From a virus, in the IMG/VR virus record IMGVR_UViG_3300009149_005470: 12,269 nt of DNA; one strand, given 5' to 3'. Made by a program: the position numbers and the translations under genes. The first letter of the stretch is position 1, and each line of letters begins with the position of its first letter. Shown here piece after piece: positions 1,681 through 4,295 of the stretch. The notes beneath the pieces were generated by a model. The model was not told where the DNA came from, ran no database searches, and saw only the letters and a program-made list of their open reading frames with translations.

Positions 1681-1705
1681 GGGAGGATATATAATATATC
1701 CTCCC
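1681..1705 (-). promoter_or_regulatory. GC-clamped perfect palindrome GGGAGGATATAT-a-ATATATCCTCCC between the MVP-like gene and the coiled-coil gene; RNA hairpin
   Basis: 12-bp perfect arms seen directly. The outer stem is GC-rich in an AT-rich genome. No U-tract follows on the minus strand, so this is not a canonical terminator. It shares the GGGAGG/CCTCCC ends with the hairpin at 4269-4295. Confidence 0.4.
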
Positions 1706-1722
1706 TACAAACTTGGACCTAA

Positions 1723-4239
1723 TTAATCATTAGTTCCGGTTTTTCCCATAATTGAATCTAAATTGATTCGATCACCAAGACCAAGACCAGTCAAAATTGT
1801 AGCTGCAGTCTGAGCAATTGATTTACCACTCATCATAGATTGAATATTAAAATTCTTTGACATTTCAATAAGAACCTTCTTATCAGTATCTGATTGAAGT
1901 GCTGCAATGAGTTGTGGTGTAAATACTTTGAGTTTCTCAATTTCAGCTTTTGCTTTTTCCTGTGCTTCACGAATTTCAATATCAGCCAATTTGGTTTTAT
2001 GATCAAAATCTTGATCATTTTTCAATTGACGTCTAACCAATTCAGCATCATTAACAGCATTCAATAATGACTGAAGTTTCTCTTGGAGTTCCAGTTTCAT
2101 TTTTTCTGCTGCTACATCACCAGTTACTCTTTCTTCTTTGAGTTTAGTTTGCTTGGTTATTTCAGAAATAGAAAGATCAATATTCTTGATTGTTGTTTTT
2201 GATTTTTCTTCTGCCATACTTCTGTTGATAGTTTCTTCTCGTTTTGTCAAATCAAGAAGTCTTGTTTTGTTTGCAATTCGAAGAGCTTGTTCAACAGATT
2301 CAATTTGAGCAAGATGAAGTTGATCTTCAATTTCAGCATCTCCAATTTTAATTCCAAGAACTTCAACATCAGTAATTTTCATACTATTTTCTGGGAATGT
2401 ATACCCAGGTCTACTGCCAACATTTTGAGGCATCTCAGAGTCTTTATCTGTAGGTGCTTCAATTTGTTTTCCAAGAATAAGATCTCTGATCAAATCAACA
2501 TAGTTTTGATTAAATTCTTCAATACCTTGTGTTTTAATCATTTTTCTAATCATAGATCTCATTCGATCACATAAATGTTGAACATAATTCTCAACATTAA
2601 ACCACTTTTCAGGATCTCCGATAAAATCAACTTTATATGATAACGTTACAGTAACATCAACTGTATTATTTGTTTCGCCTGTAACTTGATCAGATACAGT
2701 ATTATTCATATACCGAAGATATGGAGTTTTAACAGGTTGTCTGGTTCCTTTTGGAGTTCCAGCTGAAAGTTCCATTGTGATAATATCTTCATCATAATCC
2801 AATAAAAATGATTGAGGTCCAATAATAACACGATTCTTTTTCATATCAGATTTACTCTCAACCAATACTGCATAACCTCTCCATACAGATATTCTAACAG
2901 CACCCTCATATTTTGTATCAAGAATTACTGTTCTTGGTTTTGTGTATGTATTTGATTTTGAAATTGAATCTCCTGCAAATGATCTATCAGTCTTTTCTCT
3001 TGTAAATCCTTTTGATGCAAATGATGCAGAAATTCCTCTACTACTATCTGCAATCGAACTATTTCTGTATGCTACATCAGAAAGATATTCACCCTTTAGA
3101 GGATCTGATTGTTCTTCTTGAATCATCATCAAATTCTGATTGTATTGTAATGCTTCATCGTTTCCTGGGAACCATGTTGTAACATTTGAAATCCCAATGA
3201 TTCTTCTTATCAATACAAATTTTCTTGGATCAGGAAGCAACATCTGTGGACCTTTTTCCAAAATAATTTCACCATTTAGTCTATTCAACAAATAGCGACC
3301 TTCACCAGCAGGTATTGCAGTAGCATAATGGATTTCTTTACCATCATATTTTACAATTGCATGCTCTTCTCTTGGGTAATAAATTGATTTCTCAGTTCCT
3401 CTGATAAATAATTCATCACCAGGTTTATTTAATTTACCATCTTCTTCATATTCTGTTGTTACTTTGATATGAATAGCAGAGATTTCATTCAAATTAATAG
3501 CTTTGAATTTTCTTGCTCCACCTTTTTCAATAAATATTTGTGTTGGTCTTGGAAATATAACATCCGGACCTTTTGGATATTCTTTATTTCCATTTTCATC
3601 TAACAATACACAATATTCAAGTCTTTCAAGAGTTACTGCGTCACGAACAAATTTTCCTTTATCATCAGGAACTACTTCAATTCCTGTTGGAGGAATATAA
3701 AATGATTGAGCAGTTCCTTTAATAATCAACAATTGCCCCATTGTTAGATTTTCAGGAGACAATTCCCCTTCAGTTTCTTCAAAACCACCAATACCACCCA
3801 TTGCTTCTTCTGGATCATATACTCTTACAATGAGATATTGATTACTGCGAATATGATGACCCTGAATTACTTTACACATTTGACCAGGATAAAGAGCAAA
3901 TTCAGCTGGTCCGGAAATATTTATCTTCTTTCCAACTTCAAGTGTTACTTTACTCGATTGACCACTTTTAGGATGCTCATTATTTTTTTCAGGATTTTTC
4001 AAAACCATATACCAACCCTCTGGAGCAACCATATTTTTCTGAATTGCTTGAATCAGAGAAACTGATGTAAATGTTTTTAAATGATAATCAAAAATAACAG
4101 GTTGATCAGTATTGTCATCCAAATTACTTTTATGTGGACCAACAAATACATCAACATCACCTTTTTGTTTATTCAAAATAAAAGCATGTGAATTAGGCGG
4201 TAATACAAGATCTCTTTCATTGTTTCTAAGTTCAGCCAT
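1723..4239 (-). CDS. mvp: Major vault protein (MVP) homolog, 838 aa: N-terminal MVP repeats, shoulder, cap-helix coiled coil and cap-ring
   Basis: AAGGAG sits 8 nt upstream of the ATG. The N-terminus LVLPPNSHAFILNKQKGDVDVFVGPHKS aligns with metazoan MVP [28 protein letters not shown]. Recurrent repeat cores appear, such as GDELFIRGTEKSIYYPREEHAIV against [21 protein letters not shown]. The shoulder region VIIGPQSFLLDYDEDIITMELSAGTPKG ... VTVTLSYKVDFIGDPEKW ... IRDLILG parallels [28 protein letters not shown] ... LQLQLAYNWHFEV ... IIRTAVFG. The C-terminus has a long coiled coil and ends ILTGLGLG against AFGLLGLG. Confidence 0.85.
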   Translation of the reverse strand: MAELRNNERDLVLPPNSHAFILNKQKGDVDVFVGPHKSNLDDNTDQPVIFDYHLKTFTSVSLIQAIQKNMVAPEGWYMVLKNPEKNNEHPKSGQSSKVTLEVGKKINISGPAEFALYPGQMCKVIQGHHIRSNQYLIVRVYDPEEAMGGIGGFEETEGELSPENLTMGQLLIIKGTAQSFYIPPTGIEVVPDDKGKFVRDAVTLERLEYCVLLDENGNKEYPKGPDVIFPRPTQIFIEKGGARKFKAINLNEISAIHIKVTTEYEEDGKLNKPGDELFIRGTEKSIYYPREEHAIVKYDGKEIHYATAIPAGEGRYLLNRLNGEIILEKGPQMLLPDPRKFVLIRRIIGISNVTTWFPGNDEALQYNQNLMMIQEEQSDPLKGEYLSDVAYRNSSIADSSRGISASFASKGFTREKTDRSFAGDSISKSNTYTKPRTVILDTKYEGAVRISVWRGYAVLVESKSDMKKNRVIIGPQSFLLDYDEDIITMELSAGTPKGTRQPVKTPYLRYMNNTVSDQVTGETNNTVDVTVTLSYKVDFIGDPEKWFNVENYVQHLCDRMRSMIRKMIKTQGIEEFNQNYVDLIRDLILGKQIEAPTDKDSEMPQNVGSRPGYTFPENSMKITDVEVLGIKIGDAEIEDQLHLAQIESVEQALRIANKTRLLDLTKREETINRSMAEEKSKTTIKNIDLSISEITKQTKLKEERVTGDVAAEKMKLELQEKLQSLLNAVNDAELVRRQLKNDQDFDHKTKLADIEIREAQEKAKAEIEKLKVFTPQLIAALQSDTDKKVLIEMSKNFNIQSMMSGKSIAQTAATILTGLGLGDRINLDSIMGKTGTND

Positions 4240-4263
4240 TGATTAATCTCCTTTTAATTTAAC

Positions 4264-4295
4264 ATAAAAAGGGAGGGTGTCGATCACCCTCCCTT
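4264..4295 (-). terminator. Intrinsic-terminator-like hairpin or attenuator immediately upstream of the MVP-like gene
   Basis: 11-bp stem AAGGGAGGGTG/CACCCTCCCTT (4269-4279 / 4285-4295) with loop tcgat. On the minus strand it is followed directly by TTTAT, giving CCCTTTTTAT. It sits between the upstream gene stop (4305) and the MVP-like SD and start (4239). Confidence 0.5.

Follow-up and report, generated by a model that had tools for sequence, protein, structure and literature searches.

Stem-loops at gene ends around a phage-borne MVP homolog: probable transcript punctuation with a lineage-specific G/C clamp

The 12,269-nt stretch of virus DNA recorded as IMGVR_UViG_3300009149_005470 in IMG/VR (hereafter the window) derives from an uncultured huge phage with RNA polymerase (RNAP) β and β′ subunits of its own, and all open reading frames (ORFs) of the window lie on the minus strand. 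In the direction of transcription, the region of interest consists of a 192-aa gene, a 320-aa gene for a probable single-stranded DNA (ssDNA)-binding protein (SSB), hairpin H1, the gene for a major vault protein (MVP) homolog, hairpin H2, a 335-aa gene and hairpin H3, such that each of the three consecutive 320-aa, MVP and 335-aa genes ends in a hairpin (3/3). A first-pass annotation had described H1 and H2, whose outer stems pair GGGAGG with CCTCCC, as possible attenuators or Shine–Dalgarno (SD)-mimic elements bracketing the MVP gene. The evidence described below favors a simpler reading, in which these hairpins are gene-end stem-loops of the sense RNA.

H1 (4295–4269, minus strand) has the sequence AAGGGAGGGTG-atcga-CACCCTCCCTT, which forms 11 bp (7 G–C) with a 5-nt loop, and its stem begins 9 nt past the stop codon of the 320-aa gene (TAA, 4307–4305). 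The downstream sequence TTTATGTT reads CCC-UUUUUAU when the A–U base pairs are left uncounted, and the U-rich tract TTTTTATGTT (4261–4270, minus strand), located directly 3′ of the G/C core, gives H1 the canonical shape of an intrinsic terminator (9 G/C-rich bp, 5-nt loop, UUUUUAU), in agreement with the first-pass annotation. The stretch from H1 to the MVP start is TTTATGTTAAATTAAAAGGAGATTAATCAATG, the final three bases of which are the start codon; the distance to the GGAG of the MVP SD sequence (4251–4248) is about 19 nt, rather than the roughly 30 nt first given, and that to the ATG (4239) is 29–31 nt. H2 (1705–1681, minus strand), located 17 nt past the MVP stop codon (1725–1723), is GGGAGGATATA-tta-TATATCCTCCC, with 11 bp (5 G–C) and a 3-nt loop; the 12-bp arms originally assigned to it would leave a 1-nt loop, which is impossible. 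H2 is followed by ATATTATATATATAG without a U-tract (tail, AUAUUAUA), and the sequence from H2 to the ATG of the 335-aa gene is ATATTATATATATAGAAGAAAAAGGAG. H3 (608–574, minus strand), which had been overlooked, is AAAATGGAGTAGAGA-tttat-TCTCTACTCCATTTT followed by TTAG, with 15 bp and a 5-nt loop, and lies 27 nt past the stop codon of the 335-aa gene; given its U-tract, UUUUUUAG, it is by anatomy a predicted canonical intrinsic terminator. The G/C-rich stem (about 5–14 bp) and loop (3–8 nt) expected of intrinsic terminators are found in H1, H2, and H3, all three of which lie 3′ of a gene and on the strand that is transcribed, and a U-tract is present at H1 and H3 but absent at H2.

These structures are far from chance, and H1 and H2 are present on the transcribed strand exactly where the first-pass annotation had placed them (4269–4295 and 1681–1705). 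The folding energy is −20.5 kcal/mol for H1 (z = −5.9; 0/200 shuffles fold equally well), −17.2 kcal/mol for H2 (z = −3.5; 2/200 shuffles equal it) and −21.7 kcal/mol for H3 (z = −8.3). The window contains three hairpins with at least 9 perfect bp and at least 4 G–C pairs, all within the non-coding part, which makes up 6.7% of the window, compared with 0.27 ± 0.51 in dinucleotide shuffles, none of which (0/200) reaches three; chance palindromes are thereby ruled out. Counting both strands, GGGAGG is present in four copies, every one an arm of H1 or H2, against an expectation of about 1.0 (5/200 shuffles reach four). A bidirectional terminator is ruled out by plus-strand tails that are not T-rich, and an RNase III site at the hairpins by the 11-bp stems, which are generally too short. 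Integron attC-like sites were judged by anatomy alone: the stems are short and perfect, core-site motifs are not evident and no integrase is encoded nearby. An Rfam scan yielded nothing above threshold; the hits below it were caiA RNA (RF02934; 34.2 bits for 1641–1713 of the minus strand, under the gathering threshold of 55.5) and the L20 leader (26.2 vs. 58.7 bits). The partial caiA match comprises a GGG..CCC hairpin, a UAUAUAU stretch and an SD sequence plus AUG, a resemblance that reflects a generic intergenic layout, not family membership.

Syntenic relatives (numbered loci, L001 and onward) were gathered via the MVP, 192-aa, and 320-aa proteins. Strong hairpins are rare in loci of this clade (0–5 per 16–22 kb), and yet about two thirds of more than 25 lineages, MVP-less ones included, have a stem-loop behind the 320-aa ortholog, and one is also found behind the MVP gene in 6/6 syntenic lineages and behind the 335-aa ortholog in 5/5. 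Orthologs of H1 are located at the same junction in L080, L009, L079, L081 and L007, as well as in about a dozen relatives that lack MVP. That in L080 (GGGAGGGTG-atagg-CACCCTCCC) retains an identical stem with a different loop and a tail without a U-tract (ATATTAAT); that in L009 (GGGAGGGTATC..GATGCCCTCC; tail, ATTTCAAT) contains two G·U pairs; and the others include L079 (GGGAGGATAC-tta-GTATTCTCCC; tail, AAACTTAT), L081 (AAGGGAAGAC), L007 (ATATGGGAGAG-aaatagaaa-CTCTCCCATAT), L051 (AAGAGGGGAC), L066–69 (GGGAATGTATAT), and L008 (ATGGATGAAATTATATT). Although H1 and H2 flank the MVP gene, a specific association with it is not supported: H1 belongs to the 320-aa gene and occurs in relatives without MVP.

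At the post-MVP junction, the orthologs of H2 in L007 (GGGAGGTATAT-ttt-ATATACCTCCC; tail, ATGTAATATATATAG), L079 (GGGAGGAC-ataaa-GTCCTCCC; tail, AAATAATATATATAG), and L009 (GGGAGGACT-tttat-AGTCCTCCC) retain the GGGAGG/CCTCCC clamp with changed inner stem and loop. In L008 (AATAGGAGAAGAT-tttat-ATCTTCTCCTATT), G–C is replaced by A–T at clamp positions 1 and 6 with pairing kept, and L038 carries TACCATATTCTCCTTC-taatagaat-GAAGGAGAATATGGTA. All differences among the post-MVP orthologs preserve pairing (e.g., ATATA/TATAT vs. ACT/AGT vs. AC/GT); these compensatory changes were read directly, without formal pair counts; MAFFT failed to bring the short hairpins into structural register. The five A–T/T–A flips between the window and L007 should not be counted as independent events, since slippage of register within an (AT)n run probably accounts for them best. 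Where G·U pairs occur, the sense fold is favored by more than 1 kcal/mol in seven hairpins (by up to 12) and the antisense fold in three (by at most 3.8), a bias that, with a caveat of ascertainment, points to function in the sense RNA. The orthologs of H3 in L008 and L056 have U-tracts. In distant MVP-bearing phages, canonical terminators of unrelated sequence are found right 3′ of MVP, and two of these phages have a TTGACA-17-TATACT promoter ahead of the gene. In a subclass of 14–16-bp hairpins (L007:2989–3029; L038:9690–9730 and 12532–12572; L062:9555–9595; L073:9541–9577), the stems diverge and contain G·U pairs, whereas the 9-nt loop is invariant, TAATAGAAT (AAATAGAAA in L007); the 5′ arm is pyrimidine-rich in most. 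Conservation of the loop over varying stems suggests sequence-specific recognition in that subclass.

The distribution of U-tracts bears on whether these hairpins can terminate transcription. Several post-335-aa hairpins, H1, and H3 are canonical once an A–U base of the stem is counted as tail. A clear U-tract is present in 0/6 post-MVP orthologs, with L038 borderline (5 T in 8; AUCUUGUU), and H2 is thus not of the canonical type that its initial assignment as an attenuator would imply. The proposal that MVP expression depends on read-through, for want of room for a promoter, is reasonable: by our reading, a sigma-70-type promoter would not fit into the 29–31 nt between H1 and the ATG. The next SD sequence or start codon is only 17–35 nt from the hairpin in most lineages, and for this reason the downstream gene would be reached through the hairpin. 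A sigma-70 promoter scan of the window gave no signal above shuffles (82 vs. 80.4). An extended −10 element, TGnTAAATT, at about 4256–4264 was considered as an MVP promoter and rejected, as the transcript would start inside the SD sequence.

The MVP homolog gene (1723–4239, minus strand) encodes a full-length protein of 838 aa that matches Pfam MVP_shoulder (5.9e-20) and, weakly and under its cut-off, Vault_3; its SD sequence, AAAGGAG (4248–4254, minus strand), is located 8 nt before the ATG at 4239. The protein has more than 6000 homologs, mostly bacterial, and copies with 42–43% identity are encoded in the 462–735 kb uncultured phage genomes LR756500/501/503. A preprint of 2023 (bioRxiv 10.1101/2023.11.10.566534) has described MVPs of phages, but not in the present clade and context.

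The 320-aa gene (4305–5267, minus strand), of which H1 is the conserved 3′ hairpin, encodes a probable gp32/RPA-like ssDNA-binding protein. Its structural model (pLDDT 73.7, pTM 0.70) predicts an OB-fold/zinc core, a disordered linker (the tail at residues 261–312) and an acidic-aromatic C-terminal tip, FSFEDLKF; four Cys residues of the protein are invariant. Foldseek places RPA and PrgE on top, weakly (E = 3e-3, TM below 0.2), with other weak fold matches to gp32 and PhiC31 RDF, and none of the 383 members of the family is annotated. These features lend moderate support to the view that it is probably a phage SSB, a class of protein needed in abundance. The 335-aa gene (636–1643, minus strand; phrog_29668) is of unknown function and has distant homologs in gp268 of Bacillus phage G and in other Bacillus and Lysinibacillus phages; searches of PDB sequences with the 335-aa and 320-aa proteins gave no matches. 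In the A-run ahead of its SD sequence (about 1658–1662), the window has 5 A and the ENA copy of the contig 6 A (L001:12577–12582), a homopolymer difference between records. The 192-aa gene (5282–5860, minus strand) is the best conserved of the module (54–89% identity), and its product matches no known family; with the invariant residues C58, C61, C71, H74, C114, H116, C166, and C187, it probably binds zinc.

The RNAP β subunit encoded in the window is unsplit (1366 aa), and β′ is located upstream in the source contig. The RNAP genes (window 7131–11231 and 11231–12139; L001:1–2101) are both unsplit and arranged as β′, a 302-aa ORF and β, which is the reverse of the bacterial rpoB–rpoC order; the intervening gene is variable, being absent in L009 and L081 and replaced by two ORFs in L079. 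At the other end, positions 1–321 (minus strand) encode the N-terminal part of a MoxR-like AAA ATPase with the Walker A motif GPAGVGKT, which in relatives is paired with a DUF2201/VWA-type protein followed by gyrase/topoisomerase genes. Neither megablast of the window nor tblastn with the 320-aa and 192-aa proteins gave a match among GenBank phages. Clade contigs L075–L078 have been binned in metagenome-assembled genomes labelled Promethearchaeota, Thermoplasmatales, Izimaplasma and ‘uncultured bacterium’, which is probably mis-binning, and the low-GC Izimaplasma bin is the sole weak hint of a host.

The module of β, 196-aa, 89-aa, gap, 192-aa, and 320-aa genes is common to more than 25 lineages of large phage contigs of up to 268 kb. 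MVP is carried in this clade only by the window, L007/L011, L008, L009, L038, and L079 (L010 and L012 are identical to L009 over the compared 4.9-kb module segment), and a 365-aa partial ORF at the corresponding position in L080 is only a candidate. The 320-aa gene is followed by MVP, the 335-aa gene and a 64-aa gene in the window; by a small ORF and then MVP in L007 and L008; directly by a 64-aa homolog in L051–53; by a 335-aa homolog in L056; and by the MoxR-like ATPase gene in L072, as also in L081 after a 128-aa ORF. Because gene content 3′ of the 320-aa gene differs by lineage in this way, MVP is considered to occupy a variable accessory slot. Its patchy occurrence among close relatives indicates gain or loss at the 320-aa junction.

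Two related sequence boxes accompany these genes. The TATATATA motif has two sites in the window, both intergenic. One belongs to the CTATATATAT box (6232–6241, minus strand) at the start of a 403-nt gap. In its CTATATATAT(T/A)AAT form, this box is found in 26 copies in clade loci (23 lineages), 22 of which are in the non-coding stretch 3′ of the 89-aa gene, usually about 30–40 nt past the stop codon and with a AAATTCATTT-like element ahead of it; non-clade loci amounting to about 0.5 Mb contain no copy. As a candidate promoter for the 192-aa/320-aa(/MVP) transcription unit, this box ranks best. The reverse complement, ATATATATAG, lies directly ahead of SD sequences in five clade loci, including right after H2 in the window (1666–1675) and its counterparts in L007 and L079. 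In L072, it comes after a closely similar hairpin with an ATATAT stem, located between the ATPase and DUF2201 genes. In the window, it is part of the ATATTATATATATAG motif (1666–1680, minus strand) between H2 and the SD sequence of the 335-aa gene, a candidate promoter or regulatory box that forms a recurring composite with H2.

The 403-nt non-coding gap (5861–6263, minus strand) is predicted to be a highly structured RNA, especially at 5935–6029, with a hairpin of 26-bp perfect arms. Long hairpins with arms of about 17 to 50 bp and differing sequences occupy the same position in L007, L009, L038, L079, and L081, with compensatory changes in L007. The gap could thus provide a site for RNase III-type processing, or a structured leader or non-coding RNA. 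Rfam gave no match to it, and the long gap hairpin of L038 gave only spurious matches to microRNA precursors.

From the structures, their non-randomness and positional conservation, the substitutions that keep pairing, the bias toward the sense strand and the folding energies, it is fairly probable that H1 and H2 are ordinary gene-end stem-loops of the sense RNA that act as terminators or as protectors of mRNA ends, and not as a switch that mimics a ribosome-binding site (RBS). H1 is most likely a partial intrinsic terminator behind the probable SSB gene: the hairpin would form in the exit channel of the polymerase, the weak rU:dA hybrid would release a fraction of the complexes, and the unreleased complexes would read through into MVP, the SD sequence of which would stay free. 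That the gene ahead of H1 probably encodes an SSB, a class needed in large amounts, speaks for this reading, as do the canonical terminators behind MVP in distant phages. A precedent is giant phage 201phi2-1, in which only 52 of 132 mapped 3′ ends are canonical intrinsic terminators and sequence motifs recur among the terminators (PMC11512511). H2 most likely defines the 3′ end of the MVP message and blocks exonuclease, although it may also terminate transcription, weakly or specifically with the phage RNAP. Expression of the 335-aa gene would depend on read-through or on the neighboring TATATATA motif, with H3 closing the unit, and the clamp may have been copied between neighboring hairpins.

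Several observations weigh against this reading. In the first census, only 4/26 hairpins showed 5 or more T among the eight tail bases next to the stem. The U-tract of H1 is unique to the window genome, being absent from L080, L079, and L009, and because it is not kept even with the identical stem of L080, canonical termination cannot be the conserved function. A strong terminator just upstream of the supposedly abundant MVP is somewhat awkward, the invariant loop over divergent stems in some orthologs hints at sequence-specific recognition, and the enrichment of SD-like motifs in the hairpin arms (see below) is accounted for only by descent or copying.

Two classes of well-known elements come close. 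For intrinsic terminators, partial read-through into the next cistron is commonplace, and the present hairpins resemble them as G/C-rich stem-loops just past the stop codon on the sense strand, with U-tracts at H1 and H3; they differ in that H2 and most clade orthologs lack a U-tract and that the tract of H1 is not conserved. Stem-loops that stabilize mRNA between cistrons or at 3′ ends are exemplified by the REP hairpins in malEFG and the hairpins of the puf operon. As in those systems, stable hairpins without U-tracts are located between genes that would be co-transcribed, so placed as to shield the upstream cistron from 3′-to-5′ decay and to set differential expression; here, by contrast, the hairpins are single, carry a lineage-specific clamp and belong to no genome-wide repeat family in the sampled DNA.

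The complementarity of the clamp to the ribosome-binding apparatus was the basis of the suggestions of the first-pass annotation that GGGAGG may mimic an SD sequence, that CCTCC could re-pair with the genuine downstream SD sequence, and that transcriptional and translational tuning may be coupled in this way. In such a switch, GGGAGG would serve as a decoy or stabilizing RBS, or CCUCCC would pair with AAGGAG and tune translation of MVP and the 335-aa gene. Precedents are provided by STAB-SD elements, which stabilize mRNAs in Gram-positive bacteria. Another is the 3′ untranslated region (UTR) of icaR, in which an anti-SD motif pairs with the 5′ UTR of the same message (PMC3868564). The likeness lies in an SD-like GGGAGG and an anti-SD-like CCUCCC outside the translation initiation region, and the complementarity is real: with the 5′ arm open, CCUCC pairs with GGAG, and the probability that the SD sequence is unpaired falls to 0.001–0.02. 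The precedents, however, need accessibility for 16S rRNA or for the SD sequence, whereas here the motifs are locked in hairpins of −17 to −20 kcal/mol. Every base of GGGAGG is paired in the minimum free energy structure as well as in the centroid structure, and the motif is hence inaccessible for 16S rRNA. When alternative folds were computed, arm–SD pairing arose only with the 5′ arm forced single-stranded, at a cost of 15.3 kcal/mol (H1; −22.0 vs. −6.7) or 13.7 kcal/mol (H2; −19.4 vs. −5.7). With H1 and H2 intact, the downstream SD sequences are predicted to be free (probability of being unpaired, 0.68–0.89 for MVP and 0.92–0.997 for the 335-aa gene), and the summed probability of pairing between the 3′ arm and the SD sequence is 0.009 for H1 and 1e-5 for H2. 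In addition, each hairpin is transcribed and closed before the SD sequence exists, and the stems begin 9 and 17 nt past the stop codons, at which distance, given the general ribosome footprint, a terminating ribosome would not open them; across orthologs, the stop-to-stem distances of 6–27 nt follow no consistent pattern, and opening by ribosomes was rejected. No usable start codon follows GGGAGG, and in H1 a GTG abuts it with zero spacing, which also disposes of a mini-ORF starting from that GTG.

The occurrence of the motifs among relatives bears on the same question. In the 26 hairpins of the first census, GGAG, GGAGG, and GGGAGG are found in the arms 14, 7, and 5 times, compared with 5.6, 1.8, and 0.5 in composition-matched shuffles, and GGAGG is present in 7/13 hairpins of MVP carriers, which would favor a role in SD pairing, but in 0/13 hairpins of MVP-less lineages at these junctions; the cases are phylogenetically clustered. 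The MVP-less L060 has one more GGGAGG-clamped hairpin, about 210 nt past its 320-aa gene, and the later-found L079 and L080 add three further GGGAGG cases of the same orthologous kinds. Orthologous hairpins often lack GGAGG/CCUCC (e.g., GGGAAUG, GGGGUC, and AUGGAUGAAAUU), so that the anti-SD motif is not conserved, and the 5′ arm is G-rich and purine-rich in 22/26 hairpins, with the remaining four opposite in polarity. With neither a reachable alternative fold nor a conserved anti-SD motif, an SD-mimic or anti-SD switch is highly improbable, and GGGAGG/CCTCCC is better regarded as a lineage-specific G/C clamp that would have been inherited at orthologous positions or copied. It is rather unlikely, but worth considering, that the hairpins (H2 with the TATATATA box) are repeated terminator/promoter modules that serve as recombination points for accessory genes while keeping their transcript role, in the manner of the PeSLs of T4-type phages, which are composite terminator/promoter cassettes repeated in hyperplastic regions (PMC2839356; PMC4122927). 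As with PeSLs, a short stem-loop and a promoter-like box are found at accessory-gene borders in a variable region between core genes: from the 320-aa gene to the MoxR-like ATPase gene, the content ranges over MVP + 335 + 64 aa, 103 aa + MVP + 335, 159 aa + MVP + 338 + NADAR, 64 aa, 335 and nothing, every variable unit ends in its own hairpin, and the occurrence of MVP follows the similarity of the 192-aa proteins only patchily. The MVP segment of L038 is flanked by two 41-nt hairpins, which agree over most of the sequence (three mismatches in a 37-nt core), and the composite of ATATAT-stemmed hairpin, ATATTATATATATAG and SD sequence recurs at two different junctions, after MVP (window, L007, L079) and between the ATPase and DUF2201 genes (L072). 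Against this, H1 and H2 of the window have nothing but the 6-bp clamp in common, and their flanks show no homology; the TATATATA-type box is only a candidate promoter of ambiguous orientation, the copy adjoining H2 being inverse to the conserved copy after the 89-aa gene; copies are few (per 16–22 kb); the phage lineage is unrelated to T4; and neither a recombination product nor an indel pair of close relationship came to light among relatives, which are too diverged for mapping of breakpoints. The suggestion that the hairpins are binding sites for a phage RNA-binding factor or the phage RNAP, with the clamp or loop read sequence-specifically in termination, antitermination or translational control, is quite improbable. 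It would explain why U-tracts, lacking in most hairpins, are dispensable, since the signal would be read from its sequence, and it is favored by the identity of the outer six base pairs among post-MVP hairpins from four lineages (MVP proteins, about 60–78% identical) whose inner stems and loops differ, by the loop TAATAGAAT, invariant in L038 (two copies), L062, and L073, and by the β and β′ subunits of the phage itself. Sequence motifs shared among giant-phage terminators (PMC11512511) also speak for it. Like the present phage, the giant phages phiKZ and 201phi2-1 are large and have a multisubunit RNAP of their own; in these phages, many mapped 3′ ends depart from the canonical type, and terminator hairpins of one genome have recurrent motifs in common (PMC11512511). 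They differ in motifs, host and RNAP organization, the present phage having unsplit β and β′. In the wider clade, moreover, other sequences stand at the position of the clamp (GGGAAT, AAGGGG, AGTGGGGG, and ATGGATG), its conservation is also explicable by stability constraints and slow two-step substitution, and no candidate binding protein was identified. A combination, in which hairpins with clamp or loop but no U-tract would, together with the TATATATA box, form a phage-specific punctuation that is read by the phage RNAP or a partner protein and doubles as PeSL-like portable cassettes, is distinctly unlikely.

Read as gene-end stem-loops with terminator or end-protecting roles, the hairpins would be routine punctuation, and their value would lie mainly in annotation, in that they define transcription units around a phage-borne MVP homolog; the SD-mimic mechanism, from which their apparent unusualness arose, is unsupported. 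They also place MVP in a variable accessory slot right after a conserved and probably highly expressed gene for an ssDNA-binding protein. If a phage-specific terminator code or portable cassettes were to prove true, these elements would provide a handle on the organization of transcription and the acquisition of accessory genes in uncultured huge phages with their own RNAP.

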